DNA of 64,000 nucleotides. It comes from an uncultured Eubacteriales bacterium (GTDB lineage: Bacteria; Bacillota; Clostridia; Lachnospirales; CAG-274). Below the pieces are notes generated by a model. That model was not told the origin of the DNA. It saw nothing but the letters and a program-made list of their open reading frames with translations, and made no database searches. A program made the position numbers and the translations under genes. The stretch lies in the NCBI GenBank assembly GCA_902469905.1, contig CABREJ010000004.1:108554-172553 (forward strand). Direction: 5' to 3'. This document shows positions 2,934-49,922 of this stretch, in pieces (position 1 is the stretch's first letter; the number at the start of each line of letters is the position of its first letter).

Positions 2934-3077
2934 CTCAAACTGCACAAAGGACAGCTTGAATTAATTAAATTATATATCACTTTTTAACAGAAGTCAACAT
3001 TTTTTAGCATCAACTAAACAATTTAAGTTTTGTTAAGTTTTTTCTTTTCAATATTCACCCACTACTGTTTTAAATAA

Positions 3078-3100
3078 GGACGAGCAATACTCGCCCCTAC
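3078..3100. repeat. Degenerate member of dispersed palindromic GGACGAGC-loop-GCTCGCCCCTAC repeat family, in CRISPR leader-side region
   Basis: aataaggacgagcaatactcgcccctacaat matches 30450-30474 copy. Confidence 0.5.
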
Positions 3101-3120
3101 AATATTAATATACATACAAA

Positions 3121-3155
3121 AGACTGCTGCAATTGCAACAGTCTTTTACTTTAAA
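3121..3155. terminator. Hairpin terminator between array region and pgi 3' end
   Basis: aagactgctgcaattgcaacagtctttt stem-loop with T-tract; RC has T-tract too. Confidence 0.5.
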
Positions 3156-3163
3156 CATTTTTA

Positions 3164-4504: not shown

Positions 4505-4652
4505 TTTATGTATACCTCCATTATATAATTTATTTACTTAATACAAGTATACCACAGCTTAGCAATATTTTCCATACATTTTTAACAATTTTTATAAGTT
4601 TTTTATCAAATATTTATACAATTTTTGCAAATATGTGTATTATTTTGTCATT

Positions 4653-5315
4653 TTATCTGTTATTTTCTCTTTCCATCTTGCTATAAACACAGCCACAATA
4701 GTCCTGTCTGTATAAATTATATAACCTTGATAGTTCTATTGACCTTTTGTAACCGTTCTTCTTTTTAAAGTCAGATATTAAATATTCCACACCATATTCC
4801 TTGCCAAGGCGTGTACCAATTTCATTTAACCAGTCTGCATTTTTATATGGACTAATAGATAGTGATGTTGTGTAATAGTCAAACTTGTTTTGTGAGGCAT
4901 AAATGGCAGCCTCTTTCAATCTTAACTCATAACAGCTATAACATCTTTCCCCGCCCTCTGGCAAGCTCTCCCTGCCCTTTGCCATAGCATAAAAACTTTC
5001 AGGGTCATACTTGCCCTCTACAAATTTGACAGCATTGTTTAAAGGAAAGGCTTTTAAAAATTTCAATTCCTCATTTACTCTTTTTTTATACTCATCTTCA
5101 TAAGAAATATTAGGATTGTAAAAAAACACAGTAATGTCAAAATAATCATTTAAGTATTCTAATACATAAGAATTGCAAGGAGCACAACAAATATGCAAAA
5201 GCAAACTAGGTCTTTTGTTATCTTTCTTCAACTGTTCTAGCAATTTATCTAATTGTTTTTGATAATTAATTTTGTTCATATTATCACCTTTATTTACACT
5301 AAAAAACTGCCCCAT
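4653..5315 (-). CDS. queH: Epoxyqueuosine reductase QueH (DUF208)
   Basis: LLLHICCAPCNSY and C-terminal CYSCYELRL Cys motifs; ~210 aa. Confidence 0.7.
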   Translation of the reverse strand: MGQFFSVNKGDNMNKINYQKQLDKLLEQLKKDNKRPSLLLHICCAPCNSYVLEYLNDYFDITVFFYNPNISYEDEYKKRVNEELKFLKAFPLNNAVKFVEGKYDPESFYAMAKGRESLPEGGERCYSCYELRLKEAAIYASQNKFDYYTTSLSISPYKNADWLNEIGTRLGKEYGVEYLISDFKKKNGYKRSIELSRLYNLYRQDYCGCVYSKMERENNR

Positions 5316-5337
5316 ATAGGACAGTTTTTATTTTATA

Positions 5338-6741
5338 TTATACTGGATAAACCTTGTTATTTACATCAGCTAAATTTGGGTCAATACCAAACTTCTGAGC
5401 CTGTCTAAACTTAAAGAAGTCTAAAGCCTGCTGAGGGAAAAGAGCATAACTTAATACATCTTCTTCCTTCTCCTTGTAGTCCTTCATTTCAGCCTCAATC
5501 TTTTCAAGCTCTGGAGCAATATTGTCAGCTGGTCTGCAAGTAATAGGTTCTTCATCACCTATTATCTTCTTTCTTATTTCTTCAGAAATAGCAACAGGAG
5601 TTCTGCCGTACATACCTCTTACAATATCCTTAGTTTCCTTAGGAACCATTTTGTATCTTTCACCCATAAGCACATTTAAAACAGCCTGAGTACCTACAAT
5701 CTGGCTAGAAGGAGTAACAAGTGGAGGATAACCAAGGTCAGCTCTAACTCTAGGGATTTCCTTAAGAACCTCGTCATACTTATCTTCAGCCTTAGCAGCC
5801 TTTAACTGGCTAACAAGGTTAGAAAGCATACCACCAGGAACCTGATAAAGGAGAGTAGCAATATCAACAGCAAGCATCTTAGGGCTTAAAAGACCACTTT
5901 CAATAGCTTCTTCTCTAATTGGCTTAAAGTAATCTGAAATTTCCTTTAAAAGGTTTTCATCAAGACCTGTGTCATATTCAGTACCCTTTAAAGCAGCAAC
6001 CATAACTTCTGTAGCTGGCTGAGCAGTACCCATACTAAGAGGTGACATATCTGTATCAATAATATCAGCACCAGCCTCAATAGCCTTCATATAAGTCATT
6101 GATGCAACACCACTAGTATAGTGACTGTGAACCTGAATAGGAAGGTCAACTTCTTCCTTAATAGCCTTAACTAAGTCATAAGCTGGCTGAGGAAGTAAAA
6201 GACCAGCCATATCCTTAATACAAATAGAGTCAGCACCTAAATCTCTGTAAGTCTTAGCTAAATTAACATAATATTCAAGAGTATGAACATCACTTAAAGT
6301 GTAGCTAATAGCAAGCTGAGCGTGAGCACCATCTTCCTTTTTAACAGCCTTAACAGCAGTTTCAAGATTTCTTGCATCATTAAGAGCATCAAATATTCTT
6401 AAAATATCAATACCGTTTTCAATACTTTTTCTAACAAATGTATCAACAACATCATCTGCATAATGTCTGTAACCTAAAATATTCTGACCTCTTAAAAGCA
6501 TCTGAAGTTTAGTGTTTTTAAAAGCTGAACGGAACTTTCTAAGTCTTTCCCAAGGGTCTTCCTTAAGGTATCTAAGGCAAGAGTCAAAAGTAGCACCGCC
6601 CCAAACTTCCATAGCACCAAAACCAACTTTATCCATTTTATCTAAAATAGGGAGCATATCCTCTATTCTCATTCTTGTAGCAATTAATGACTGCTGACCA
6701 TCTCTTAATGTACAGTCACAAATTTTAATAGGCTTTGCCAT
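5338..6741 (-). CDS. Oxaloacetate decarboxylase alpha-like / transcarboxylase 5S-type carboxyltransferase subunit (no biotinyl domain)
   Basis: N-term KICDCTLRDGQQS pyruvate-carboxyltransferase (TIM barrel) signature. Confidence 0.8.
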   Translation of the reverse strand: MAKPIKICDCTLRDGQQSLIATRMRIEDMLPILDKMDKVGFGAMEVWGGATFDSCLRYLKEDPWERLRKFRSAFKNTKLQMLLRGQNILGYRHYADDVVDTFVRKSIENGIDILRIFDALNDARNLETAVKAVKKEDGAHAQLAISYTLSDVHTLEYYVNLAKTYRDLGADSICIKDMAGLLLPQPAYDLVKAIKEEVDLPIQVHSHYTSGVASMTYMKAIEAGADIIDTDMSPLSMGTAQPATEVMVAALKGTEYDTGLDENLLKEISDYFKPIREEAIESGLLSPKMLAVDIATLLYQVPGGMLSNLVSQLKAAKAEDKYDEVLKEIPRVRADLGYPPLVTPSSQIVGTQAVLNVLMGERYKMVPKETKDIVRGMYGRTPVAISEEIRKKIIGDEEPITCRPADNIAPELEKIEAEMKDYKEKEEDVLSYALFPQQALDFFKFRQAQKFGIDPNLADVNNKVYPV

Positions 6742-8405: not shown

Positions 8406-8774
8406 CTATAAAATACTACCATTTTGCTGTTCGTTAATTGCTTCCTTGTTCCAAGAGCTAACTCTCTTTAATCGTCTTACAACAAGCTTATCAGGGCCAA
8501 TATTGTTGCCCTTAGCACACTCACTAGCTGCAATAGCTGCTGTAATAACTGCAATTAATTCAGCATCATCATTTACCTTAACTTCTTCTACTGCCTTAGG
8601 CTCTACAGCAGGTGTTGTATTAACAACAGGCTTTTCAACCTCTGCCTTTTTGCTACTTGCCACCTTACCAAAAATAAAGAGAACAAAAGATATAAAGATA
8701 AGCACAGCAAATACAGTACAAAAGCCTAAAATAGTAACCATTAAACCTTCAGCTAACCATTCCATATATATCAC
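8406..8774 (-). CDS. Decarboxylase gamma subunit (OadG-like)
   Basis: N-terminal single TM (LMVTILGFCTVFAVLIFISFVLF) then Ala/Glu-rich region typical of OadG. Confidence 0.6.
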   Translation of the reverse strand: MIYMEWLAEGLMVTILGFCTVFAVLIFISFVLFIFGKVASSKKAEVEKPVVNTTPAVEPKAVEEVKVNDDAELIAVITAAIAASECAKGNNIGPDKLVVRRLKRVSSWNKEAINEQQNGSIL

Positions 8775-34577: not shown

Positions 34578-34612
34578 ACTATTGCGTGGCATAATAACAC
34601 GCAATAGTTGTT
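34578..34612 (+). terminator. Perfect hairpin after M23 gene (weak U-tract)
   Basis: ctattgcgtggcataataacacgcaatag. Confidence 0.4.
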
Positions 34613-34664
34613 GTACATATATTATAATGCATTAAATGCTCTAGTATCAAACATTTAAACAGCA

Positions 34665-35510
34665 GGTGTAATTAAGGTGTTGTTTAGGTGTTGTTTTTTT
34701 ATAAATTTGTCACCCTATTTTTTGGCTTAAATACTAGAGTTTCAATATATAGGGTGTCAAAAGTGCAAATATTTTTCACTTCTTGAAATGTTATAATATT
34801 TTATATTTTTCAATTATTTTTACCAACCAAAAAAATCGACACTTTTAACACCCTGTTATTTTTTATGTTTATTATATATTTTTCTTTATTATTATAAAAG
34901 TAAGTAAATAAGCCATTAATTGAACATTGTTAAGCAATAAATAATACTAAAAATTAATTATAAATATTAATGTTAATGTACTAATTTTAACACCCAAATC
35001 GACACCCAAACAACACCCTAGCAATATATCTAATTAAAGTAATACTAATATACAGTAAATTAATTATAAAAATAAAATCCATAAGTGTAAAAAGCTCTAA
35101 TATTAAGATTTAACTTAGGGTGCAATTTATGGTGCAGTTTGGGTGCAAGTTTATTGCATATTTTGCACCCCATTTTTTGGCTTAAATACTAGGGTTTCGG
35201 AGTGTATGGTGCAGAATGGTGCATATTTTTTGCACTTACTAAAATGTTTAATAATATTTTTGATTTTCAACTTTTTTGCCAACTAAAAAAACCTGCACCA
35301 TTTTGCACCCCGTTAAAATTTTTATTTAATACTTTATGTATTTTAGTGTAAAAAACATAGTAAATAAGCCATTAATTGAACATTATCAAGCAACAAATAA
35401 TACTAAAAATCAATTATAATGTTAATATTAATGTATTTATTTCTGCACCATATTTTGCACCATAACTTGCACCCTAATTTAAACTATATAAATATAATTG
35501 ATTAAAGTAT
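34665..35510. repeat. Two tandem ~450-bp noncoding modules (unit1 ~34665-35120, unit2 ~35121-35510) with conserved AT-rich backbone but systematically swapped word arrays (GGTGTT/AACACCC in unit1 vs GGTGCA/TGCACCC in unit2)
   Basis: Aligned by eye: caccctattttttggcttaaatactag (34711) vs caccccattttttggcttaaatactag (35167); taagccattaattgaacatt... block conserved; no ORF >60 aa. Confidence 0.65.
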
Positions 35511-35544
35511 AGAAAAAATTAATAGGTAATGTTGGAAAATATTC

Positions 35545-36320
35545 TGTCAACCTACTCTGTGAGGGACGGTAAATGGCATTCCCCACCATACATAAAAATT
35601 AAAAGTAATAGTTATAAAGTACAGCTTGCTTGTAGGGGCGAGCATTGCTCGTCCATAGTAAAACGCGGATATTCGCCCTTAGTTATTCACAAATAGTTAC
35701 ATCGGGCGATTAATAATCGCCCCTACAAATAAACTGTTCTTTATATTTAAAAACACAACTAAAGAATAACAATATAGCTCCACTCTTAGGGACGGTAATG
35801 TGGTGTATCTCTATAGTAGCCTGTTTTAAAAAATGAAAAAGGACGACCACTGGTCGCCCCTACAAATAACCCGTTCATTATATTTAAAAGCACAACAGAG
35901 GAATAACCCTTTAGCTCCACTCTTAGGGGAGCTGGCACGAAGTGACTGAGGGGTTTTATTTAGGTAATAAGTAATAAGTAATAAATAATAGTTAATAGGC
36001 TATATGTAATAGTTACTGTTTGCTTGTAGGGGCGAGCATTGCTCGTCCTTAGTTATAGATAATATCAGAAACCCTTCCGTCAACCTACGGTTGCCACCTT
36101 CCCTATAAGGGACGGTAATGGGTATGTACCCACATATAATTATTAAACAAAAGTACAACTTAATTGTAGGGGCGAACAGTGTTCGCCCGCAGGTATTTAC
36201 AAATAGTTACATTAGGCAAACATCAGCATTTTTGCTACGCAAAACAAATCTTTTAATAAATCTAATTTTCATACAATCTAATTGATATTAAACATTAAAA
36301 AGGTCGACCACTGGTCACGC
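35545..36320. repeat. Second cluster of the same mosaic repeat families: hairpin units at 35631-35654, 35700-35727, 35841-35864, 36025-36048, 36165-36190, degenerate 36302-36320; 45-nt element 35912-35957; GGGACGGTAATGG-type units 35545-35584, 35775-35810, 36076-36132
   Basis: Direct reading; units share GTAGGGGCGA / TCGCCCCTAC arms with variable 4-10 nt cores. Confidence 0.7.
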
Positions 36321-36321
36321 G

Positions 36322-36771
36322 TCAATTTATACTATCCATAATTTTATCAACGAGCATAACATCTGCCGGAAGCCACTGAACATCATATAAACTATCCTTT
36401 GTCAGCCACTTTGCCGCTTCAGCCTCCAGCAATTTCAATTCACCGTCAATAACCTCACACCAGAAGCAATCCATAGATAAATGAAATGTTGGATAATCAT
36501 ATTCAATAGTATCTATCAAATCACCTACTATGATTGTTGCTTCCAATTCTTCTTTTATTTCTCTAACAAGGGCCTCTCGTGGTGTCTCACCAGTTTCTAT
36601 TTTTCCTCCTGGAAATTCCCACTGTCCTTTAAATTCTCCATATCCTCTAGCTGTTGCAAATATTCGTTTCTTTTCCTGTATTGAATCGCAAATAACAGCA
36701 GCTACAACTCTTATAGTTTTCATATCTGTCCTAAATAAATTCAAGCATTTTCTTTTCAATGCAGAATTCAT
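36322..36771 (-). CDS. Nudix hydrolase
   Basis: Nudix box GGKIETGETPREALVREIKEELEA (GX5EX7REUXEEXGU). Confidence 0.8.
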   Translation of the reverse strand: MNSALKRKCLNLFRTDMKTIRVVAAVICDSIQEKKRIFATARGYGEFKGQWEFPGGKIETGETPREALVREIKEELEATIIVGDLIDTIEYDYPTFHLSMDCFWCEVIDGELKLLEAEAAKWLTKDSLYDVQWLPADVMLVDKIMDSIN

Positions 36772-37408
36772 ATCCCATCTTTTTTAATCCAACTTTGCCA
36801 AAGTCTACCGCAATAGATGTTCCTTCGATTGAAGCAATAGTTCCAGTTCCAAATGTCTTATGTTTTACTTGCTTACCCACAATATCAGCAGGAATAACAA
36901 CGGGTGGTTTTGGCTCTGGCTTAGGAATAACTGGTGGAACATACGTAGATTTGCTACCCGTCTTTTTCTTAGCAGTAACCATCTTCATATACTGTTCATC
37001 CACATCTTTACCACGTGCTTTGAAATCTTCAATATCCTTAAATACAAACATATCTGGTTTCTTTACATCATTATCAGGCACCGGGCGAATAGGGAACATC
37101 CACACCTTTCTTGGCACTCCGTCCTCACCTGGTTGAGTTTCTGTATATGGCTTATCAACCAGTTCAATTCTTCCGCAGTAAATATATTCACCTGCGTCCA
37201 TTACTTCAAATAGGTGAACATCAACACCGTTATATCCACATTCCGCAAGAGTAGAATTTTGTGCCCAGTTAATATCCTGGTCTCCATTTTTTCCCATTCC
37301 TGTGTAATGAAGAACGCCACCTATCCATTTGTCATGATATATTCCTTTTGTATAATCAGACACAATAACCAGAGTATTCGTTGTCTTTGAGCGGCACATA
37401 CCGCTCAT
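36731..37408 (-). CDS. SRA (YDG)-domain protein, modified-cytosine binding-like, with Pro-rich linker and small C-terminal domain; overlaps Nudix gene start by ~40 bp
   Basis: HYTGMGKNGDQD ~ UHRF1 YTGSGGRD; NSTLAEC ~ NRALALNC; EYIYCGRIELV ~ YDGIYKVV; RKVWMFPIRP ~ GFLVWRYLLRR (from memory of SRA fold motifs). Confidence 0.55.
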   Translation of the reverse strand: MSGMCRSKTTNTLVIVSDYTKGIYHDKWIGGVLHYTGMGKNGDQDINWAQNSTLAECGYNGVDVHLFEVMDAGEYIYCGRIELVDKPYTETQPGEDGVPRKVWMFPIRPVPDNDVKKPDMFVFKDIEDFKARGKDVDEQYMKMVTAKKKTGSKSTYVPPVIPKPEPKPPVVIPADIVGKQVKHKTFGTGTIASIEGTSIAVDFGKVGLKKMGYEFCIEKKMLEFI

Positions 37409-37886
37409 ATTTCCACACTTAAATGTATCTACAAATCAGCATTTTTCAAAACTTGTCCTATTTCTAATCTAGGATTAAACATAAATACGCCTCCAATTTT
37501 ATAACACCTAACTTACTCACTCAATTTATGACATCTATTTCAAACTCACAACCCTATCACATTTTACGACGGATATGTTTCCGTAAAGAAAATTGGGTCA
37601 ATTAAAAAATTAGTATTTTACTCCCAACTTCTGAAATCGCCCATAAATAAACCCTTTTCAAGCTACAATTATCTCACCTTTGACATCAACACCACAGTCT
37701 CCACATGGCATAGAAGATGTTTCGCATACTAAATAGCGAAAATAAGCCTATTTTAAGCAAAGGGGGTTATTTTTGGAATTAACCCCCTATATTCAAGCAA
37801 TATAACCAAATTATATATATTATTTTTAAGTTAAATAAAATCACTTAAAAATTATAAGCATGCAATTACATTAAAATTAAGTAACA

Positions 37887-39149
37887 CTACATAAAAAATC
37901 TAAAATCATATGGTCTATCATATATAGCAATCTCCTGTTTTGCCATCTTAGATAGTTTTTTTGAGAAATCTAACGTAACCGGCAACACTTTATAAAAGCT
38001 ATCTCCGCTATTCCAATTCATTTTTGTTAACATCATTATTTCATCAACTAATGTTTTACCATCCGCATTTCCTAAAAAACGTTTTATATATAATGGTACA
38101 GGTATTTCCCTGCCATTTTTATAGTAATTCCTATTCTTTCCAGCTAATTCATCATGTTGAACTGCTCCATGTGTCCACAACAAGAAACTATTATCATCTA
38201 TAGGTATCACTGTTCCTCTAGATATAGGAAATGCTGAGGCCTTTGATTTAAAATCATTACTATCAAATCTAATTGCCCTCCATTGATTAAATTCTTGAAT
38301 TTGAATCAACTCAATGTCTTCAACTCCAACTAATCCGGCCTGTATTCCTTCTATTTCCTCTTTGGTAAAGAATGTAGTCTTATGAATTACTATTCTTTTT
38401 AAACTGTATGTGGGAACAGAATTATCATATAAATCTTTCAGTTTGCTCATTAATAATCTTGCATCATCTTTTCTCATAAATGGATTTTTATTAATAAATT
38501 GTGGATTTTTTATAGGACGAAGAAATAATCTCATTCCATTACCTTGTGCATCAAACAATTGGCTGCATCCGATCAGAATTTCTTTCTTACCTGCCATAGC
38601 TTGTACATAACTTAACCCAACATATGCTGTATCAATCCTATAATTTTCAGGAGTCCATAATTTACCTATTGCTTTTGTATAAATTGCCGTAGATAAACCC
38701 CACATAATTTTAGCCAAATCATTATATCTGTTTTGCACAACAGAACGTGCTTCTATAAACTGAGTTTTAATTTCCTTTTGTGCACAGTATAACTTTATGG
38801 AATCATGCAAGTCAAAATATTCTTTATCATTTTTTAACTCCCTATATTTTTTAAACTCAAACGGAATATAAATTACAAGCATATCAAATTCTGATACATT
38901 CTCATATAAACTATCAATATACTTAAGCAATCCCCTAAAAAATTGTTTGATATTACAGTTAAGTGCCTTACTCATAGAATAACCTTTATATCTCATACTG
39001 TCATTTTTATAAGGAATATCTATAGCACATCTAAAAATAATATTAAACCCATCATATTCCGGCAAAAAACATTTTTCATTACTATAGTTGGAAACCGCTC
39101 TATTATTTAATTTATGTGTCAAGACAGACCTCCGTCCCCTGTCTTGCAT
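37887..39149 (-). CDS. Short prokaryotic Argonaute (MID-PIWI), catalytically inactive; annotated ATG lies inside an IS inverted repeat so true start is probably a downstream Met (e.g. MRYKGYSM)
   Basis: PIWI landmarks in order: KAIGKLW (pAgo KxGGxPW-like), TAYVGLSYV (GxDVxH position, D->S), RIVIHKTT (RDG position -> KTT), QIQEFNQWRAIRF (~VVQKRHHTRLF), IPVPLYIKRFLG (~IPAPAYYAHLVA); MID-like DMLVIYIP...YRELK...EIKTQFIE. Confidence 0.6.
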   Translation of the reverse strand: MQDRGRRSVLTHKLNNRAVSNYSNEKCFLPEYDGFNIIFRCAIDIPYKNDSMRYKGYSMSKALNCNIKQFFRGLLKYIDSLYENVSEFDMLVIYIPFEFKKYRELKNDKEYFDLHDSIKLYCAQKEIKTQFIEARSVVQNRYNDLAKIMWGLSTAIYTKAIGKLWTPENYRIDTAYVGLSYVQAMAGKKEILIGCSQLFDAQGNGMRLFLRPIKNPQFINKNPFMRKDDARLLMSKLKDLYDNSVPTYSLKRIVIHKTTFFTKEEIEGIQAGLVGVEDIELIQIQEFNQWRAIRFDSNDFKSKASAFPISRGTVIPIDDNSFLLWTHGAVQHDELAGKNRNYYKNGREIPVPLYIKRFLGNADGKTLVDEIMMLTKMNWNSGDSFYKVLPVTLDFSKKLSKMAKQEIAIYDRPYDFRFFM

Positions 39150-39222
39150 TTTGGAAATCCGTTAAAAACAGCTTAAAATGGGTACTTTTTCAGTGGTTTT
39201 GAACCGTCCACTGTCTTGTCCT
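39119..39222. mobile_element. ~104-bp MITE-like deletion derivative of an IS: left IR tcaagacagacctccgtcccctgtcttgc joined to right-end segment gttaaaaacagcttaaaatggg...cagtggttttgaaccgtccactgtcttg
   Basis: Left IR matches 40784-40811; right segment matches 41057-41110. Confidence 0.55.
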
Positions 39223-39282
39223 TCATATGAACCATCACCTGTCTTTCTACTGTCTTGCTGTCTTGCTACACATCTATCATTT

Positions 39283-39780
39283 TCATTTATCATTCTTTGG
39301 ATCATATTTTACAAGTGTTATTACGCTTTCAGCAAAATCAATCCAATCAGCATTATCATCAAGACATAATAACTTTACACCTGTATAGCTATAACCTCTT
39401 TTATCCGGTAAATCTAAAGACGCATATTTACCCCATCTATCATTCCAGCCTATTTCAATCTTTTTTTTACCTTTCATTACCTTATTAAACCCCTTTATAC
39501 CATAATATACTTCCTCATAAGTTTTATTTATCCTCTGGTCATAAAGGAAATAAGGCTCCTTAATTTCTTCGCTCATAGCATACTCGATAGCATTGGCAAG
39601 TTCATTTGCTGTATATGGTGTTTTCAATTCAACAGGAACATTTACCATAAATCCCCTAAAGTCATCATCTGGCTTTATATTATCCAATTGCCCGCGTGAA
39701 AAAATTGCAATATTCTCTTTCTCATCTATTAAGATTTCGACCCTTTTATATTCCTCAAAATTAACTTTCATACAGTACAT
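39283..39780 (-). CDS. Putative immunity protein for orphan RHS toxin tip
   Basis: Small cytosolic ORF immediately downstream (4-bp gap) of the orphan toxin C-terminal module. Confidence 0.4.
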   Translation of the reverse strand: MYCMKVNFEEYKRVEILIDEKENIAIFSRGQLDNIKPDDDFRGFMVNVPVELKTPYTANELANAIEYAMSEEIKEPYFLYDQRINKTYEEVYYGIKGFNKVMKGKKKIEIGWNDRWGKYASLDLPDKRGYSYTGVKLLCLDDNADWIDFAESVITLVKYDPKNDK

Positions 39781-39783
39781 CTC

Positions 39784-40593
39784 CTATTCAACTATTCTTG
39801 TAATTACATCTATTCCCTTTTCTTTTGCATAACTCACAACTTCACTAAATACCTTTGATTGTTCCTTGCTCATTTCAACTGGAGGAATTGCTATCTCTAA
39901 AAATTTTTTTCCACCTTTATCTAAAGCGTATTGTTCCCCTAAGTATGTCTTTCTATAAAACTTAGATAAATCATCAACATATTGTATTAAAGTTCTCTTC
40001 AAAGTATTTGCATTTTTATAACTTTTAGCTGTAACATCTATACTTTTAATACTAGTAACTGATGATAACCAATGAACGCCATCCTTTTTAAATGCCTCTA
40101 CAAATTTATCTATAGTCTGGAAATTATTACACATACCTCCCAAAGCTTTTTCAATTTCCCAACCTCTATCAAATACTTTCATTGCCCATACTCCAGTTTT
40201 AACATAATCATCAGCTTTTGAAAGTATTTTTGTTCCGCTTTTTATTGTTTTTGCTACATATGATCCTGGTGCATAAGGTACAAGTAAAGCAGCAGCATCC
40301 CATGCTAAAAAGCCAAAATTAGCTAAACTAGGATCATTTACAAAGTCAACAAAACTCCATCCTAAACTAAATAAATCAATAACAGTTTCAACTGGTACTT
40401 CACCTGAAGTGTCTAAATACTTAGTAGGATTATTATAACAATAAGTATACCAATTAACCCCATCTCTAATCGGATCCTCAGTAATAAACCTACCGCTTTC
40501 ACTGTCATAATACCTATTCCTTAGATATATAAGTCCGCTCTCACTATCAAGATATTCACCACAATAGCCAAAAGGAACATCATTTACATTAGA
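39784..40593 (-). pseudogene. Orphan RHS C-terminal toxin module (no start; begins exactly at IS inverted repeat 40595-40623)
   Basis: Own translation of 40593->40183 gives SNVNDVPFGYCGEYLDSESGLIYLRNRYYDSESGRFITEDPIRDGVNWYTYC..., near-identical to RHS 41637..43679 residues around PxxxxDPxGL, continuing in frame into ORF 39784..40182 with a different toxin tip. Confidence 0.65.
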
Positions 40594-40594
40594 C

Positions 40595-40623
40595 GCAAGA
40601 CAGGGGACGGTTCTCTGTCTTGC
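40595..40623. repeat. Solo IS inverted repeat (gcaagacaggggacggttctctgtcttgc), inverted relative to 40784-40811
   Basis: Exact reverse complement of caagacagagaaccgtcccctgtcttgc. Confidence 0.6.
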
Positions 40624-40783: not shown

Positions 40784-41110
40784 CAAGACAGAGAACCGTC
40801 CCCTGTCTTGCTTCCTAAAAAGCGTGCCCCTATTGAGGGCAAAAATGCAGAAATGAAAAGATTTCATGGTCTAGCTCGTGCCAGAGGGTACGGGCTTAGA
40901 AGTGTTGCACTTCAAACTAAATTTACTGCAATCGCAGTAAATTTAAAGAGGATAACAAAGCTGTTATCCTCTCAAAAAGCAAATATTTTAGCAAAGCTGC
41001 AAGTAACTATTTTTAATTTTTCAATTTCCTTGTTTTTGAAATTTCAAATACGTTAAAAACAGCTTAAAATGGGGACTTTTTCAGTGGTCTCGAACCATCC
41101 CATTGTCTAC
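40784..41110 (+). mobile_element. Internally deleted IS remnant (IS5/IS1182-like): left IR, C-terminal transposase fragment (40808..41056), degenerate right end
   Basis: ORF KRFHGLARARGYGLRSVALQTKFTAIAVNLKRITKLL resembles DDE transposase C-terminus; IR at 40784-40811; right-end segment shared with 39170-39222. Confidence 0.55.
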
Positions 41111-41133: not shown

Positions 41134-41640
41134 CTAGTTTTCAACAATAGAAAGTGATTCTGGATTATATTTTAAATCAAAAATTATTCGTTCATTCTTA
41201 TTAGTTAGGTATATAAATATTTTATTATTATAATAATTTTTATCAAAATAAGCTCTACTTGTACCTTTATCCATAGGCAAGTATGGAAATCTTTGTTCTT
41301 TTACATGAATTAATTTATTTATTTTTCTACCCTGAGATATAACAACATTGTATCTATTAAAGTCAATTTCAGAAAAATCAATTTCATCCAACGAAAAAGT
41401 AGGACTATTTAATGGATTTGGTTTTTCATCAGCATAGTGCAAAACATCCCACCAAACATATGGTATTTTATCATTAGAAAAATTGATATTATATTCAATA
41501 GATTTATATTCAAGAAGTTTTACTTGATATTCTTTATATTTAAGAAAATGATCTATTATTATAAAAGCCACTATAATTATAATTATTACTATACATAAGA
41601 TAATAGAACATATAAACCTATTTGGCTTTACTGTAATCAT
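41134..41640 (-). CDS. Putative membrane-anchored immunity protein of RHS toxin
   Basis: Starts 4 bp inside RHS stop; N-terminal TM helix; position typical for RhsI. Confidence 0.45.
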   Translation of the reverse strand: MITVKPNRFICSIILCIVIIIIIVAFIIIDHFLKYKEYQVKLLEYKSIEYNINFSNDKIPYVWWDVLHYADEKPNPLNSPTFSLDEIDFSEIDFNRYNVVISQGRKINKLIHVKEQRFPYLPMDKGTSRAYFDKNYYNNKIFIYLTNKNERIIFDLKYNPESLSIVEN

Positions 41641-43679
41641 GCTACTCCCTCCGTTTTTTCATAATATATAGGTTTTCCATTCAGGTCATACGCATTTAAA
41701 AGTCTATAATTATTAATATTTTTTAAATCATTTACATTTAACGTTTGACCATCTATATTTGAATATACAGTAATAGTATCCATACTCTTTGTATATTTAA
41801 TAAAACCCAGCTCACTTCTTTTTCCATTTCTTAACCATGAAGCAAAATAATCTGTACCAGAATTTAAAATTGGCTTGCCTGTTAATACTGACCATCTCAT
41901 ACTACCATCCCAGCCATACACATTTTTAACATTTTGGTATTTAGCAAACTCAAAAGCTAAATTTTCAGTACTATAATCTTGGTGTGCAGAATTACAAGAA
42001 TTTAATATAATTGTATTGATATTTTTTTCTTTTAAATCTTTGACATGTACACAATCTCCCTGATAATTACGACTTTCAGTAACTAATGGTTCACCATTCA
42101 TAATAATTGCTTGTGGATTAGCATGAAAAAATAATTCTACTAATTCTATTTCTGAACCTTTATTGTCCATATTATCCCATTCTTCTTTAAACTGTTTAGC
42201 ATTTGAAATCATTTTTATATATACAGTTTTTCCCTCAAGTTCAAGTTCTTTTTTCCTTTTATAAGCTCTATCCCCCAAAGAAGCATTGTTTTTATCTGCT
42301 TCATTATAAAAAATATATACATCCTCTAGTCCCAATAAATCCCAAAACATCACAGGATTACCACCACAATAACTATACCAATTAACCCCATCTCTAATCG
42401 GGTCCTCAGTAATAAACATGCCGCTTTCACTGTCATAGTACCTATTCCTAAGATAAATCAATCCACTTTCACTATCAAGATATTCACCACAATAGCCAAA
42501 AGGAACATCATTTACATTAGAGCTTTCAACCTTATTGCCATAAGCATCATACCTAGTAATATTTTCAGCTACAGTTCCCCTGTTTTGTTGAACAAGGTTA
42601 CCATGACCATCATACATATATGCTCGTCTGTCATCATCTGTTAACAACTGATGTCCTCTTGTATAGCCTCTTAATATTGTATTAGACGAATTTGCCTCTG
42701 CAACTATATTGTCAACGTCCCATATCTGCTGAGTGAGTACTCCGTCCACAGTCTTTGACATTCTGTAATGATTTGGTAAATAAGCATAAGTCGCAGTTGT
42801 ACCATTACTTTTTTTATATTCTGTCAGCTCATTAAGTCTGTCATAAGTAAATATTTCATAACTCGTGCTATCGTCTGTATTAGCATCATTAATACTTATA
42901 GTGAACTTATTGTCAATATTCTGATTATACTTAGCCTTACTTATCTGATTACCGTTATTATCATAGCTATATTCGGTTATTGTATAATTAACTAAATCCG
43001 ATATTTCATTGGATTTATCTATACTGTAATTCTCTCTTTTTTCTTTAAGTAATCTGTTATTTTTATCATAAGTATATTTAACATAATAATCATCATAGCC
43101 ATCTTCGCTGCTATATACATCAGTTCTGTTTCCAAATATATTGTAATAATAACTGGTATAATACTCTATGCCACTTTCATTTCTGCGTTCACCTGTCAAT
43201 TGGTTAGATGAATTATACTCATATCTTACAATCCTGCCATTTGTATCAGTAGCCTTGTTAATATTACCATCATAGTTATAAACATAACTGTACTTTGTAT
43301 CTAAACTGCCACTGCCGTCATTATTTATCACAGTAAGCATATTGGCATTATTGTATGTATATGTTCTTGTACAGTTATTATCCTCTACCTTAGTAATATT
43401 ACTGTTATTGTCATAGGTGTAATTAGCAGTAAATTTAGTTGTACTATCTCCTTCGGAGCTGACGGAAAGTAGTCTGCTAAGTCCGTCATAGGTATACTTT
43501 TGAATTTTATATGTAGTATTACCCTTTTTATATACATTTTGGGTATTTCTGCCCCATGTATCGTATATTCTCGCTATACTGAAATTTCCTGTTGTTTCAG
43601 TTGCTACAAGACCTAAATTGTTGTATGTATAGCTTTGACTTACATTGCTGTTTACTGATGTCTTTACTCCTCCTGTCAT
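41637..43679 (-). CDS. RHS/YD-repeat protein, 5'-truncated (680 aa), with C-terminal polymorphic toxin domain
   Basis: YD repeats (YTYDNNSNITKV, YTYNNANMLTV, YEYNSSNQLTGE...), core-end motif FITEDPIRDGVNWYSYCGGNPVMFWDLLGL, then ~225-aa variable tip. Confidence 0.8.
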   Translation of the reverse strand: MTGGVKTSVNSNVSQSYTYNNLGLVATETTGNFSIARIYDTWGRNTQNVYKKGNTTYKIQKYTYDGLSRLLSVSSEGDSTTKFTANYTYDNNSNITKVEDNNCTRTYTYNNANMLTVINNDGSGSLDTKYSYVYNYDGNINKATDTNGRIVRYEYNSSNQLTGERRNESGIEYYTSYYYNIFGNRTDVYSSEDGYDDYYVKYTYDKNNRLLKEKRENYSIDKSNEISDLVNYTITEYSYDNNGNQISKAKYNQNIDNKFTISINDANTDDSTSYEIFTYDRLNELTEYKKSNGTTATYAYLPNHYRMSKTVDGVLTQQIWDVDNIVAEANSSNTILRGYTRGHQLLTDDDRRAYMYDGHGNLVQQNRGTVAENITRYDAYGNKVESSNVNDVPFGYCGEYLDSESGLIYLRNRYYDSESGMFITEDPIRDGVNWYSYCGGNPVMFWDLLGLEDVYIFYNEADKNNASLGDRAYKRKKELELEGKTVYIKMISNAKQFKEEWDNMDNKGSEIELVELFFHANPQAIIMNGEPLVTESRNYQGDCVHVKDLKEKNINTIILNSCNSAHQDYSTENLAFEFAKYQNVKNVYGWDGSMRWSVLTGKPILNSGTDYFASWLRNGKRSELGFIKYTKSMDTITVYSNIDGQTLNVNDLKNINNYRLLNAYDLNGKPIYYEKTEGVA

Positions 43680-43709
43680 GTTATAGATTTCAAACCGTTC
43701 CTTGTATTA

Positions 43710-44321
43710 TTAAAGACCAAAAGAAATATGTATTTCTGTAATTATATTTTCATCGTTAAATTTAAAGTATATATAATAACTACCTATAACATATCCAAAT
43801 TCATTTTCTTCCTGCGGTATATCCTTTATCGATAATTCATCCTGATAGTATTTCATAGCATATTCCTTAGTTGAACCAATTTTCGGCTTGCCTCCTGAAA
43901 ACTTATATTCTGAATCTGTAAAAATAAGAGAATATAACCTAGTATCACCCTCACTTCCATTATGAGTTCTATATTCATCTTTGAGAACTAAAACGCTAAA
44001 ACTACCATAATCTAATATATAAAGTTGTTCACTATAATCCTTTATACTTATTGGTCTACCATATACCTTTTTAATACTTGACAATTTAAGGTCAGATGAT
44101 ATTTTTAAATCATTCAAATAAGAGTTCCCCTCATTATACTTATTTCTATCAAAATATAATTTTCCAATATACACTAGTAAAAATAAAAAACCTAATATAA
44201 ATAAAACCACAAATTTACACCCGCTCTTCCTTTTATTCATCCAAAAGACCCCCTCTATAAATAACTTTACCTTTAGGTTTTGTCTTACGTGCAACTGATT
44301 TTGAAGACTTTGTGGCTTCAT
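43710..44321 (-). CDS. Hypothetical membrane-anchored protein (start probably internal MNKRKSG)
   Basis: N-terminal TM FVVLFILGFLFLLVYIG; no known domain. Confidence 0.4.
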   Translation of the reverse strand: MKPQSLQNQLHVRQNLKVKLFIEGVFWMNKRKSGCKFVVLFILGFLFLLVYIGKLYFDRNKYNEGNSYLNDLKISSDLKLSSIKKVYGRPISIKDYSEQLYILDYGSFSVLVLKDEYRTHNGSEGDTRLYSLIFTDSEYKFSGGKPKIGSTKEYAMKYYQDELSIKDIPQEENEFGYVIGSYYIYFKFNDENIITEIHISFGL

Positions 44322-44532
44322 TTATTTCATAATATTTTGTTTGTTCCTTATCTGTTGATAGTCTGGATTCATATTGTGACAATTTTTGTTCCGAATTACC
44401 TGTAATTTTACTTTTAGCTTTATTTATAGCAATTTCTGTTTCTGAACCGAATGAAACATTTCCGTCATAAGCATATACAGTTCCTTTAGCTATCTTAGAA
44501 AAGTTACTTGCTGGAGCTGCGATTTTGCAAAA
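44241..44532 (-). pseudogene. Start-less ORF remnant (…KIAAPASNFSKIAKGTVYAYDGNVSFGSETEIAINKAK…GGLLDE*)
   Basis: Own translation; upstream in-frame stop with no Met; stop overlaps next gene start. Confidence 0.3.
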
Positions 44533-44590
44533 TCACACCATTTGACAAAGAAAAAAATATCGGATATGATTTTTGTAATCACAACAAATA

Positions 44591-45145
44591 TTATATAACT
44601 GTAGTGGTATGACACACTGCTCTAAATATCAACATCTGGTCCAAATCAGCATCTTCAATAGAACAAGGGGCACCACCACGCAAAGCTGTTTCCAGATGAT
44701 AAAATAGCATACATTGTTTTATGTGTCCAAGTAGTAGCTGTGACCTTCGTTTATAACCATACTGTTTGAGAAGTGTTCTAAGTTTGATTCTCACATAATT
44801 GTTTCCATTTCCATATAAAATCCGAATCCTTATACTTTTGAAAAACAAATCTAAATTAGAAAAGTCACTAGTTAATTGTTCAGTAGACAAAGTCCTATTT
44901 GAATATGCCAAATCCTTTTGTATTGCAGGAAACTCTTTATCAATAACGGTTTTATTATAGAAGTACTGCATCCAATAATATGTATCTAAAATAAATTTCC
45001 GTTGATTTTTCCTATATGGAATATCTAAAAATGATTTCTCGCCTTCCCATATCAAGTCAAGTATTCTTATTTCATCTCGACATCCGAGTTGCATACGGCT
45101 GACAATGACAGCAATATCCAGTGCAGTATAATATAACCCTTGCAT
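44591..45145 (-). CDS. Hypothetical protein co-operonic with helicase-HNH (ATGA overlap)
   Basis: 184 aa, no recognisable domain. Confidence 0.4.
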   Translation of the reverse strand: MQGLYYTALDIAVIVSRMQLGCRDEIRILDLIWEGEKSFLDIPYRKNQRKFILDTYYWMQYFYNKTVIDKEFPAIQKDLAYSNRTLSTEQLTSDFSNLDLFFKSIRIRILYGNGNNYVRIKLRTLLKQYGYKRRSQLLLGHIKQCMLFYHLETALRGGAPCSIEDADLDQMLIFRAVCHTTTVI

Positions 45146-47457
45146 TATTTATCACCCTTCGTTCCGTTACACTTGCGACAAAGAATCTGTAAATTTTCTG
45201 CAACACTTTTGCCTCCATTGTTCATTGGAATTATATGGTCAACTTGAAAATAGATACGCGACTTGTCTGCAACGCCACAGCACGCACAATGGTAATTTCC
45301 ATTTATATCTTTTGCTTTTTCAAAAGCTTGATTTCTTAAGCTCTTTTCCAGTGTAGGATTGATTTTTCCAATTTCATACAGTGACAAATCTTCCAATGCT
45401 CTAGTTCCATACTTTATATTGTTTTCTTCATTATAAATATCTGGATGAGATAATTTCATCAATTCAATACTCAACTGACGGAGGAAGTAAAGTTTTCTAC
45501 CAAAGAACAAACGAAGCATATTGTCATCACTGGATTCCCAAAGAGAATCAATATATTCTGTTCTTTTGCGTTCACCCATATCTTCATCCCAAATATGTTG
45601 AGCAATTTTGCTTACATCGAGCTTACTTCTATCGACTTCATCAAATGTATAAAATTTAGGAACAGCTTCATATTGAGCATAATATTTCAAAATATTCAAA
45701 ATATCCTTTCGTTCGTAAGGTGGAATCATTTCTCCACAGAAGAACGAATTTCTGCACTGTGCTTCCATTTCATCAATCTGTGTTTCCGTTAAATATTCTT
45801 CAGTTGCACCAAAAGACTTAAATAGTGAAGGAAGTGCATCCATTAAATTTTTATAGGCATCTTGGGTACTATCATAAACCATTACCTGATAAGAATGATC
45901 CATTCCATTTTCTTCAAGATATGTAAAAGCATACATTCCAACAGGGATTCTTTTTTCAAAAGGAACTTTTTCCAACGCAGTAGTATCAACTGCATCATCT
46001 AAAATAGCAGCAAATTCCTCTATTTTAGAAATGGCAATCATTCGCAAATCTCGTTTTGCTCGTTCAAAGTCATTATCCTGGAAGTCATTATTTCCATCAA
46101 ATAAGCTTTCTGGATTAACCCACGCAATGTGTTCGTTCCAGTAATCAACAAACGAAACAATGTATGCAATTGAAGTACCACCAGCTGCTGTACCACGCAA
46201 TGCACGACCAACCATCTGGGTCATCAAAATTGAAGACACAGTAGGTCTTGCTAAAAACACGGTTTTAGTTTTTGGCAAATCGACACCTTCGGTCAAAATA
46301 TTGACATTGATTAAAACCTGCAATTTTCCATTTCGGTAATTATCAAGCTTTATTTCGTTATCTTCTCGGCTGATAGTCACACCAGTAATAGCATCTTTGA
46401 CTGAAGATACAATAAAGTCCGCTTTGATACCAGCTTTTTTGAAAAGAGATGTTAATTGAATTGCATGAACCACATTAACAGCAAACAGGATTGTTTGACC
46501 ATATTCATCCTGCTTTGCCTTATATGTTTCAACAATCAGTTTGTTACGGGCAGCACTATCTGCCATCTGCTGTGCAACTTCATCGGGCAAAACATCCAAA
46601 TGCTGAATACTTTCCCAAGCATCAAAGCCAAGCGAATCACCATATTCTTCATCTGTATAAAAACTTTCAAATATCGGCTTTGCAAGAATCTGTCTGTTAA
46701 TCAGCTCTTTAAGTCCAATTTGGTATGTAATTCCTACATCACTATGAACAACTTGTCCATTACTGATTCCATCGGTATAAATTTTTGCCAAAAGCCCCTG
46801 TTCTTCTTCAGCAGTACGAAACGGAGTTGCAGTCAACCCAATTAGCTTTAAGTTAGGAATCTTTGCCTTTACATAATCAATAACTTTTCTGTAGGTTTTT
46901 GCAGTTGAATGGTGTGCTTCATCCACAATTAGATACAGCTCTTTTTCACCTTTGAGCCAACAATCCAGTCGCTCAATATTTCTTCCAATACTATCTTTAC
47001 TGACAATCAACAAATTGTCGCTTGAGCGAATATCACTGGTTCTGTCATGACTGGATGCACCAGATACAATTCTGAAACAGAAAGAAGAAATGTGAGGAAC
47101 AACTTCTGTATAAGCAAACTTTTGGAATGATTCAGCAGCCTGATTTAACAGCATCTGACGGTGGGCAATCCAAAGAATTTTCTTTTTCTTATCAATCGCA
47201 TTTTTTAAAAGCCACATAGAAGCAGTATATGTCTTACCACCACCAGTTGGAAGAACCACCAATGTATTGTAAGATGGTTCCTGATTCATCTTATCTAATG
47301 CTTCCATAGCTTTTTTCTGATGTTCGTAAGGCGTTCTAGTATTTGTGCCTTTTTTGGGAAAAATATCACCAAATGATTTAACTTCAATATAATTTGTAAA
47401 GTTTTGTTTGTCTATTTCTTTCATTATTTTTTCCTGTTCCTCTCTATATTGAACCAT
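45145..47457 (-). CDS. SF2 helicase (DEAH, type III res-like) fused to C-terminal HNH endonuclease
   Basis: Motif I LPTGGGKT, II VDEAHH, III LTATP, VI QMVGRALRG; C-term CACCGVADKSRIYFQVDHIIPMNNGGKSVAENLQILCRKCN. Confidence 0.75.
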   Translation of the reverse strand: MVQYREEQEKIMKEIDKQNFTNYIEVKSFGDIFPKKGTNTRTPYEHQKKAMEALDKMNQEPSYNTLVVLPTGGGKTYTASMWLLKNAIDKKKKILWIAHRQMLLNQAAESFQKFAYTEVVPHISSFCFRIVSGASSHDRTSDIRSSDNLLIVSKDSIGRNIERLDCWLKGEKELYLIVDEAHHSTAKTYRKVIDYVKAKIPNLKLIGLTATPFRTAEEEQGLLAKIYTDGISNGQVVHSDVGITYQIGLKELINRQILAKPIFESFYTDEEYGDSLGFDAWESIQHLDVLPDEVAQQMADSAARNKLIVETYKAKQDEYGQTILFAVNVVHAIQLTSLFKKAGIKADFIVSSVKDAITGVTISREDNEIKLDNYRNGKLQVLINVNILTEGVDLPKTKTVFLARPTVSSILMTQMVGRALRGTAAGGTSIAYIVSFVDYWNEHIAWVNPESLFDGNNDFQDNDFERAKRDLRMIAISKIEEFAAILDDAVDTTALEKVPFEKRIPVGMYAFTYLEENGMDHSYQVMVYDSTQDAYKNLMDALPSLFKSFGATEEYLTETQIDEMEAQCRNSFFCGEMIPPYERKDILNILKYYAQYEAVPKFYTFDEVDRSKLDVSKIAQHIWDEDMGERKRTEYIDSLWESSDDNMLRLFFGRKLYFLRQLSIELMKLSHPDIYNEENNIKYGTRALEDLSLYEIGKINPTLEKSLRNQAFEKAKDINGNYHCACCGVADKSRIYFQVDHIIPMNNGGKSVAENLQILCRKCNGTKGDK

Positions 47458-47644
47458 TTTCTTGTAATGACTTCAAATAAAACATATATATTACCTTTAT
47501 CTATTTTGGTAATAACATATATCACTCTTCCCTTTGAAAATATCAAGTAATAAATAATACAAATATCGGCTAGATTATCATCCAATAATTTTGTTAATTA
47601 TGATTTTTAGAACTATAGATTTAGAAACATATTCCATCTTATGC

Positions 47645-48511
47645 TTAATTTACCTCAATTTCCTTCAAACTTCTACCATCTTTTGTTTTCCATTTTTGAG
47701 GTCCACTAACATTATAGCCAAGTACAAACTTTGCCGCAGCTGACGAACTGGAAAACAAAATATCGTCCTTAGTTATATAGTTATCAACCTTATCTGATTC
47801 CAGAAGTTTTTGTTTCAACATCTTCATACCTTCACTTAAAGAATCAGCAGAATCTCTTTTATCAATATTAGCTCCGGCAAACACTACAAACCCTTCTGCT
47901 GTAACTTTACCTTTAGCATTAACAGAACCCGATGAAATATATAAAATCTCATCATCAACAGTTGTATTTACAATATCCTTTTGAACCAAAGGTTCTAAAA
48001 CCTTATAACCAAGTGAATTAATAAGAATCTTTACATTATCAATAAATTCTTCCATTACAGCTATTTGTGATTTCTTCATAACTGTATTGCTATATGTGTT
48101 CTTTGTAAGCACAAGATACCTTTTATTCTCTCTTGCAATTTCAACAAAACGATTTTCCAAATATCTAATAAGTGCCTTGCTCAAATCTCTGCCAATAAAG
48201 ATAACAGCTGTATTCCAATAATACTTTTCTTTTTCAGACTGATAATCTCTCAAGTGCTGAACAAGTCTATCTTTAACATTTTCTGCTTCTCCAATGTAAA
48301 CAGAGTCAGAGCCGTCATCTTCCTTACAAAAAAGGAAGTATACTCCTGCCTGAGTAATATCGTCACTGTTACAAGAAGAAACCTCAATACGAGGAATTTT
48401 TATTGCCTTACCATTCCAATTTGATAACTCTGCAATAATCAGACTGTCTGCTGTTCCATTTACAAGAAACAATTCTATCACTTTTCCATAAGCCATTTTA
48501 AATTTCTCCAT
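47645..48511 (-). CDS. GIY-YIG nuclease family protein with DUF4357-like C-terminal domain
   Basis: GVYFLF...VYIGEAENVKDRLVQH GIY-YIG core. Confidence 0.65.
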   Translation of the reverse strand: MEKFKMAYGKVIELFLVNGTADSLIIAELSNWNGKAIKIPRIEVSSCNSDDITQAGVYFLFCKEDDGSDSVYIGEAENVKDRLVQHLRDYQSEKEKYYWNTAVIFIGRDLSKALIRYLENRFVEIARENKRYLVLTKNTYSNTVMKKSQIAVMEEFIDNVKILINSLGYKVLEPLVQKDIVNTTVDDEILYISSGSVNAKGKVTAEGFVVFAGANIDKRDSADSLSEGMKMLKQKLLESDKVDNYITKDDILFSSSSAAAKFVLGYNVSGPQKWKTKDGRSLKEIEVN

Positions 48512-48845
48512 TCGATATTTTTATCTCACCTTTGACATCAACACCACCGTCTCAACGTGGCACGATACGTCCTGATTGATGTCGCCATATCGGAACATTT
48601 CTCCCGATTTTGAGCTATAATCCAATAGTTCTCGGAAACATATCTATCGGCACATTTTGCCATTATCCAATACGCAACCTAAACCCTGTTCGTTGTAGGA
48701 AACATATCGAGTTTTTCTTGTTGCTACTATATATAAGCAGCATATCTTCCACCACTGCCTCAAGCCAGAACTAGCCTTTTAGGAAATTGGTCATCGTAGA
48801 ACTATTCCCGCATAAAAGGCATTGTCTCGCCCCGAAATCAACGCT

Positions 48846-49922
48846 TTATTTCTTTGCATTTTCTTCTAATTCCAACATATATTTATCAAAGTCAGACATA
48901 AATAATCTGTCCTGAACAACTCGATATTTTTCAAATTCAGTTTCAGCTTTTGCCTTGGCAATCTCTGCTGTGATTTTGCCTGCATCCTGAAGAACCTCCC
49001 TGTCATCAGCCATCAGGAATAAATCAAGGCGCTTTGACCAATCTTCCATTGTCATTGGAATATGGCGTTCTGCACGGTCTTCGGCCAAATCCAAATAAGC
49101 GGATACAATACGCTCTAATGAACGCATTTCTTGCTCACTAAGATAATTCTTCGCAACACCCACATCACTTTTTACAATCTTACCTTCCGGTGCTGCTGCC
49201 CATGTAGTTAATCCCATGTGTGGCTTATCTGCATCTGCTCGCTCATAAATCAACTCTGCAGCTGTACGCCCATGTATTGCATAATGCATCTTGTTTTGAA
49301 CCTTTGCAAAAAACTGCTTAGTTGTTTTTGCAGTACGGTCATAATCAAGAGCTGTCGCATAGATGTCTGTTATCTTCTGGTAAAACCTACGCTCAGACAA
49401 ACGGATTTCTCTAATCTGCTCAAGCAAACGTTCGAAATATTCTGTTGTAAGTATTGAACCACCATTCTTCAAACGCTCATCATCAATGACCCAGCCTTTG
49501 ATGGTGTAGTCCTTGACAATGCCGTTAGACCACTTGCGAAACTGCACAGCTCTCTCATTATTCACCTTGAATCCAACAGCAATAATCATTTGAAGATTAT
49601 AATGCTTGGTGTCACGAGTAACCTGACGGGAACCTTCCGTTTGAACTATCCGGAAATTCCGGATAGTTGAATCTTCCTCAAGTTCTGAATCTGAATAAAT
49701 TTTTTTAATATGGTCGTTGATTGTACGAACATCCACATCATATAATGTAGCCATCATCTTCTGTGTCAGCCATATATTCTCATCCTCATAGCGCATTTCA
49801 AAACTGTCCTGCTGGTCGCCGACAGTGGCAACATAGGTCAAATATTCTGCTGCGCTGGAACGGATGGTTACTTCATCTTTTTTCTTTTTCAAATAGGAGG
49901 CCTCCTTCTGGTTATTTCTCAT
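48846..49922 (-). CDS. RhuM-family protein (virulence protein RhuM / putative DNA-binding)
   Basis: ENIWLTQKMMATLYDV...HYNLQMIIAVGFKVNNERAVQFRKWSNGIVKDYTIKGW matches RhuM consensus from memory. Confidence 0.6.
   Translation of the reverse strand: MRNNQKEASYLKKKKDEVTIRSSAAEYLTYVATVGDQQDSFEMRYEDENIWLTQKMMATLYDVDVRTINDHIKKIYSDSELEEDSTIRNFRIVQTEGSRQVTRDTKHYNLQMIIAVGFKVNNERAVQFRKWSNGIVKDYTIKGWVIDDERLKNGGSILTTEYFERLLEQIREIRLSERRFYQKITDIYATALDYDRTAKTTKQFFAKVQNKMHYAIHGRTAAELIYERADADKPHMGLTTWAAAPEGKIVKSDVGVAKNYLSEQEMRSLERIVSAYLDLAEDRAERHIPMTMEDWSKRLDLFLMADDREVLQDAGKITAEIAKAKAETEFEKYRVVQDRLFMSDFDKYMLELEENAKK

Follow-up and report, generated by a model that had tools for sequence, protein, structure and literature searches.

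A C-terminal remnant of a single-gene SIR2-APAZ-Argonaute joined to IS1182-family debris in an uncultured Eubacteriales bacterium

We analyzed a 64,000-nt stretch of DNA from an uncultured Eubacteriales bacterium (contig CABREJ010000004.1, positions 108,554 to 172,553; hereafter the window), in which an open reading frame (ORF) at 37887-39149 had been predicted to encode a complete, catalytically dead short prokaryotic Argonaute (pAgo) with a separate partner gene. We found that the ORF is a C-terminal remnant, comprising codons 615-1023 of a 1023-codon fusion gene, and not an orphan short pAgo or a new stand-alone class of pAgo. It is very probably a recently 5′-truncated relic of a single-gene SIR2-APAZ-pAgo system of clade S1A (SPARSA-A; naming after Koopal et al., PMC9097488), and most likely a non-functional one. 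The features at and around the break are as follows.

37887-39149, minus strand: pAgo ORF, 420 aa
37887-39117, minus strand: pAgo remnant, codons 615-1023 plus stop, from the alignments to the intact allele L087, PDLC02420 and 8in8_C
39118-39149, minus strand: codons of a leader derived from an insertion sequence (IS), read from the sequence
39120-39146: 27-nt hairpin CAAGACAG-N11-CTGTCTTG, at the junction with the pAgo remnant
39150-39266, minus strand: IS1182-family end debris, terminal repeat CAAGACAGTGGACGGTTC...CCACTGAAAAAGTACCCATTTTAAGCTGTTTTTAACG with further degenerate copies, matching 41046-41109
40784-41109, minus strand: larger IS1182-family derivative with the same terminal hairpin, matched by NF033551 and DDE_Tnp_1_6

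The fused SIR2-pAgo model PDLC02420 of PADLOC matched the ORF with an E-value of 6.9e-177 (588.6 bits), with only residues 12-420 taking part and aligning to model positions 610-1010 of 1010. The best stand-alone model, pAgo_I, scored 337 bits, and its alignment began at position 61 of 457, leaving the N-terminal part of the Argonaute unmatched. Against 8in8_C, the short pAgo of the Geobacter SPARSA system (GsAgo), the E-value was 2.3e-54; residues 14-420 of the ORF corresponded to residues 71-473 of 473, and the alignment extended to the last C-terminal residue. The PIWI homology to short pAgos on which the original prediction hinged is present in these alignments. Pfam returned no significant Piwi match for the ORF, only a sub-threshold one to Piwi_N, and NCBIfam returned no Argonaute match; the Argonaute identity rests on the PADLOC and PDB sequence searches, by which the ORF is a MID-PIWI module with real homology far above chance.

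The ORF carries the motifs VGLSY (residues 177-181) and IHKTT (255-259), identical or near-identical to the AYIGLSY and IHKTT of GsAgo with which they align. The motifs on which the claim of catalytic death was based are therefore there as described, and GLSY and KTT may take the places of GxDV and RDG in active Argonautes. A profile alignment with hhalign to an approximate human AGO2 PIWI segment was not significant, and its sole aligned helix had a register that put HKTT opposite YRDG. Published work states that the DEDX tetrad is absent from all short pAgos (PMC9097488), and the description of the module as catalytically dead is probably right. The MID-like segment said to precede the PIWI domain was likewise found and retains the 5′-phosphate motif FDLHDSIK, aligned to FDLHDRIK of GsAgo, with H115, K119 and Q130 invariant in the family alignment; it is incomplete, its first 60-70 residues being gone, and the PIWI domain is whole. 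Homology to relatives begins at His12, and the block VNQLKGL..YGPIE..SIRLA.L.P, conserved in database homologs, is missing from the ORF.

The break point was located by comparison with an intact allele. Because a scan of the genome collection found no close relative of the window organism (the best was Blautia producta, at 64% identity), the intact allele for this synteny comparison was taken from metagenome contigs. It encodes a 1023-aa protein, P0125, that falls in the ORF's own 90%-identity cluster, and it lies at 2940-6011 of locus L087, where it is annotated with SIR2_2. Positions 4781-6081 of L087 aligned to 39117-37818 of the window at 98.9% DNA identity, and the sequence upstream of L087 4781 matched nowhere in the window. 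Similarity to L087 thus ends at 39117, placing the break between codons 614 and 615. The coding part of the aligned region differs at 11 of 1231 nt, 4 of the differences being synonymous and 7 non-synonymous.

What was lost can be read from the intact protein. Residues 1-614 of that protein align with GsSir2-APAZ, whose structure is solved (E=3.3e-35), and its Argonaute module starts at about residue 551-556, so that about 60 MID residues went with the effector; missing from the window gene are the SIR2 NADase, the APAZ domain and 60-70 residues at the start of MID. In GsAgo, MID spans residues 1-218 and PIWI 219-473 (PMC10781750), by which measure the ORF lacks about a third of MID. The SIR2 domain, which L087 and the relatives have, occurs neither in the ORF nor elsewhere in the window: a tblastn search with SIR2- and APAZ-bearing relatives found no SIR2- or APAZ-like sequence in the 64 kb, in agreement with the earlier statement that no APAZ or effector gene is adjacent. 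The accompanying proposal that a partner gene was lost in an IS-mediated rearrangement holds as to the loss of an effector at an IS junction, and fails in that the supposed partner was the 5′ part of this very gene. Upstream of the intact alleles lie a serine recombinase, a helix-turn-helix gene and three small ORFs, and none of this flanking sequence is matched in the window.

The junction itself is of IS type. The 27-nt hairpin occurs three times in the window (39120-39146, 40596-40622 and 40784-40810) against 0.01 expected copies, and a 37-nt IS end block occurs twice with 0 expected. Hairpin and IS1182 end thus recur 1.6-1.9 kb upstream of the junction. We observed that each of the three hairpin copies marks the exact edge of a truncated gene, namely the pAgo, an orphan RHS C-terminal module and the IS1182 transposase. 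The annotated ATG (39149-39147) directly abuts the junction hairpin, and the IS repeat supplies the start codon, as had been noted; the first 11 residues, MQDRGRRSVLT, are hairpin-derived and have no counterpart in homologs. Together the hairpin and the debris at 39150-39266 make up the miniature derivative, resembling a miniature inverted-repeat transposable element, that the original prediction had described. It is colinear with the copy at 40784-41109 save for an internal deletion of about 220-230 nt that removed the transposase tail. The larger copy keeps the last ~50 transposase codons (ORF 40808-41056, plus strand), matching positions 439-488 of 488 in NCBIfam NF033551, the IS1182 transposase (E=2.3e-12, 46.6 bits against a cut-off of 270), and also Pfam DDE_Tnp_1_6. 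With ~50 codons in one copy and none in the other, a complete IS1182 transposase is absent, and both copies are non-autonomous debris. Rfam and tRNA scans of the window gave no matches, leaving the junction unmarked by a tRNA or known RNA. RNA folding at the junction was no more stable than in shuffled sequences (z=0.08), and a promoter scan returned fewer sites than shuffled sequence, which allows no promoter inference.

The junction recurs unchanged in four samples that were assembled independently (L001, Logan ERR688506; L086, ENA ERZ28662316; L088, ENA ERZ27229364; L089, ENA ERZ28575972). L088 and L089 were drawn from contigs of 190-227 kb, and 12 kb of L088 match the window at 100% identity. 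The truncated allele was found in many samples, and all six truncated versions (P0121, P0123, P0124, P0128, P0129 and P0001) carry G126E and G348E, where the intact-type alleles P0125, P0126 and P0127 have glycine at both positions. All 56 intact relatives have glycine at position 348, and none of them has E126. L086 carries a further in-frame deletion of 87 nt (29 codons) inside PIWI. Otherwise the remnant is well preserved, with one deviation (G348E) in 91 columns conserved at the 95% level. The changes that could be polarised to the truncated lineage were 4 non-synonymous, 1 synonymous and 1 deletion, too few for a selection test; the intact-type alleles likewise show many non-synonymous differences. 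On this comparison the truncation is recent.

The family to which the remnant belongs was drawn from a scan of species-representative genomes, which yielded 80 loci. At 56 of the 80 the gene is a single unbroken frame of 948-1101 aa (1000-1045 in most), with 538-700 residues (mostly 595-638) ahead of the equivalent of His12. PDLC02420 matches the full-length relatives end to end, Pfam SIR2_2 lies near the N-terminus, and the stand-alone pAgo models start matching at about residue 537-547. Some 300 residues of APAZ-region sequence precede MID in the homologs, and the window ORF has none of it. Judged by these alignments, the parent gene belongs to clade S1A, the single-chain SIR2-APAZ-pAgo systems.

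One locus, L004 (39-3118), holds a split system, with a 324-aa SIR2 ORF 18 nt ahead of a 695-aa APAZ-pAgo ORF; this split point differs from the usual S1B layout of SIR2-APAZ plus pAgo. A 695/696-aa start is common to two homologs, P0049 and P0057.

Disruption of S1A genes is common. We found in-frame stops in L006 (Blautia producta DSM 2950, a complete genome), L019 and L064, frameshifts in L007, L018, L024, L068, L069 and L084, and 5′ truncations in L056 and L060; L002 and L003, context loci of homolog P0004 from outside the genome scan, are truncated likewise. At L060 (2293-3720) a large-serine-recombinase element truncates the gene within ~8 codons of the window break point, an independent event, whereas in the window an IS1182-derived miniature element lies at the break beside an RHS array. 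About one-sixth of the assessable species representatives have a disrupted fused SIR2-Argonaute gene, a figure in which some metagenome-assembled genomes may contribute assembly errors. Among near-identical alleles, L087 is intact, L090 carries Y499* and L091 two stop codons; counting the truncated lineage with these two nonsense alleles, three of the four distinct versions of the window allele are disrupted. The window copy is thus one of many disrupted S1A copies, and such frequent breakage fits costly, often-lost, NAD+-depleting suicide systems in gut Lachnospirales.

The closest solved structure is that of the S1B SPARSA system GsSir2/Ago of Geobacter sulfurreducens (PDB 8IN8, 8JKZ), in which SIR2 and Ago are both needed for defence (bioRxiv 10.1101/2021.12.14.472599; PMC10781750; PMC9097488) and the pAgo sits in a clamp formed by SIR2 and APAZ (bioRxiv 10.1101/2021.12.14.472599; PMC10781750). 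GsAgo and the window ORF share FDLHD.IK, GLSY and IHKTT. In Geobacter, however, effector and Argonaute are encoded separately, with a full-length Argonaute of 473 aa, whereas the ancestor of the window gene was fused and the copy is truncated. The S1A system PgSir2-Ago of Paraburkholderia graminis is a single-chain fusion like nearly all the relatives, at ~1000 aa, and the 98.9% identical intact allele, and it protects against phage (bioRxiv 10.1101/2021.12.14.472599; PMC10781750; PMC9097488). Unlike such systems, the window copy is left with neither SIR2 nor APAZ and is missing ~60 residues at the start of its Argonaute module; it most likely cannot work as a member of the clade. SPARTA systems (S2A, TIR-APAZ plus short pAgo) share the logic of a MID-PIWI sensor but have a TIR effector and form another clade; their sequence match is weak (E about 1e-15), and they are not the family of the window ORF. 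Stand-alone pAgos of clades S1B and S2 are complete ORFs of ~450-510 aa with an APAZ-effector gene in the operon, and the window ORF has neither property.

Ancestry in S1A fusions implies that the ancestral mechanism was guide-dependent activation of a SIR2 NADase, as established for GsSir2/Ago and PgSir2-Ago and presumed here for this allele. In the intact protein, the MID-PIWI part with a small guide RNA, clamped by APAZ and SIR2, would detect invader DNA, and detection would unleash the N-terminal SIR2 NADase, depleting NAD+ and aborting the infection. A rearrangement associated with the miniature IS1182-family element would then have removed codons 1-614 and joined the remaining 409 to an orphan RHS toxin-immunity cassette, leaving a remnant that has neither an effector nor an APAZ clamp and whose MID fold is incomplete. 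We infer from this that function was lost.

Several observations weigh against such a loss. The remaining 409 codons are still open, and the deviation at conserved columns is within the range of intact genes. The loop of the junction hairpin is GGAGGT, whereas that of the other two copies is GGTTCT, a change that creates GGAGG (39133-39129) with an in-frame TTG (39122-39120) 6 nt on and so gives a good ribosome-binding site and start. A simple scan found no terminator-like site between the upstream cassette and the ORF, and the fragment may therefore be transcribed and translated. Four non-synonymous changes to one synonymous on the truncated lineage are too few to prove relaxed selection. The absence of SIR2-APAZ covers the 64-kb window, and a protein acting in trans could be encoded elsewhere.

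These observations leave a small chance that a 411-aa effector-less MID-PIWI protein is made from the GGAGG-N6-TTG start and has a residual or new role in guide binding, as a dominant-negative protein or decoy, or by pairing in trans with a SIR2-APAZ protein. The same TTG was chosen in other annotations (P0123, 411 aa), the 5′-phosphate motif is kept and the truncated allele occurs in many samples. Set against this are the loss of about a third of MID (the GsAgo alignment begins at residue 71), the replacement of an invariant glycine in G348E, and the lack of any SIR2 or APAZ sequence in the window. Sister allele L086 persists despite having lost 29 PIWI codons, and the truncated alleles, all at least 99% identical, point to one recent event and not to long retention. 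That the 411-aa fragment has been retained as useful, as a guide-RNA sponge or as a product poisoning incoming or resident SPARSA complexes as a natural dominant-negative or as an anti-toxin to an NADase suicide system, we consider quite improbable.

We also considered the suggestion of the original prediction that the Argonaute is a genuine orphan working with the SRA and Nudix genes downstream, features of which are given here.

37755-37787, minus strand: terminator-like hairpin GGGGGTTA...TAACCCCC then TTTGCTT, read from the sequence
37669-37710, minus strand: 42-nt core, repeated at 48521-48562, from blastn and alignment
36731-37408, minus strand: SRA_ScoMcrA/Tudor gene
36322-36771, minus strand: MutT-like Nudix gene, PADLOC PDC-S07

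Both genes lie on the same strand 0.5-1.1 kb downstream of the remnant, the SRA gene beyond a gap of 478 bp (earlier given as about 480 bp) and the Nudix gene 1.1 kb away, and in two distant genomes (L053, 11340-11705; L066, 7754-8035) a PDC-S07-type Nudix gene is the immediate neighbour of an intact fusion gene. Nevertheless, a working partnership is very improbable. The ORF is demonstrably part of a longer gene, and the terminator-like hairpin stands between it and the SRA gene, starting ~100 nt past the pAgo stop within a block 98.9-99.5% identical to L087 and L090; a simple terminator scan did not list this hairpin. In L090, whose gene and 3′ flank are 99.5% identical, the 42-nt core (8721-8762) leads into a DUF4357 gene and not into SRA. 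None of the 80 related loci has an SRA homolog within the flanking sequence retrieved (up to 10 kb per side). With the switch to DUF4357 in L090 and the absence of SRA from those flanks, we rejected the SRA partnership; the SRA and Nudix genes are neighbours and not Argonaute partners. The association of Nudix genes with intact fusions could be defence-island co-location or a link through NAD/ADP-ribose metabolism.

The SRA_ScoMcrA/Tudor and Nudix genes overlap by 41 nt in the longest-ORF reading, and the 90% cluster of the SRA protein has 610 members, spread over many long contigs. The two genes may form a separate small defence module.

Finally, a metagenome misassembly over the repeated IS sequence, with the real gene intact, is hardly credible: the break does lie exactly at a repeated element, where assemblers can jump, but the identical junction in separately assembled samples from different projects argues that it is no misassembly, and the truncated alleles carry the private substitutions G126E and G348E. 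Truncation of an S1A gene remains the preferred reading, and the apparent orphan Argonaute should be corrected to a pseudogene fragment and not counted as a new stand-alone pAgo class. It is the ordinary decay of an already known kind of defence gene.

The 42-nt core also delimits a larger unit. As a direct repeat it brackets a block of 10.85 kb that holds the DUF4357 gene, a DEAD/HNH helicase gene, the RHS array, IS debris and the pAgo remnant. In the window the DUF4357 gene lies ~9-10 kb upstream of the remnant, behind the second core copy at 48521-48562. The hybrid junction in L090, where the pAgo 3′ flank meets the DUF4357 5′ flank, suggests either module exchange at the core or a circular or tandem form of the island.

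Upstream, the remnant abuts an RHS toxin array interspersed with IS fragments, of which the nearest cassette comprises two features.

39784-40622, minus strand: orphan RHS C-terminal module lacking its own start codon, with an EC869-like nuclease toxin domain
39283-39780, minus strand: ORF for the presumed RHS toxin immunity protein, assigned by position only

The orphan frame is open from 40629 to 39784, and its RHS core homology begins exactly at the hairpin 40596-40622, with 83% identity to residues 386-450 of the RHS protein encoded at 41637-43679. Pfam CDI_toxin_EC869_like matched the module with an E-value of 1.5e-11. The ORF that directly follows the toxin stop codon had no family match in Pfam or NCBIfam; the RHS immunity gene reported upstream of the Argonaute is thus in place, with an immunity role presumed from its position. 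The orphan toxin-immunity cassette is bracketed by two hairpin copies in inverted orientation.

The RHS protein at 41637-43679 has 680 aa, which seems short for an RHS toxin. Farther upstream (45145-49922) are genes for a DEAD/ResIII-HNH helicase, for a protein with DUF4357 and for a RhuM-like protein, and the stretch around 41637-49922 looks like a defence/toxin island. On the far side of the Nudix gene, 34600-36300 is an ORF-free stretch of 1.7 kb with direct repeats of 350-455 bp and several GC-rich palindromes (TGTAGGGGCGAGCATTGCTCGTCC). These repeats had no Rfam or tRNA match, and the parent contig has similar ones at another site (L088 18.6-19.2 kb).

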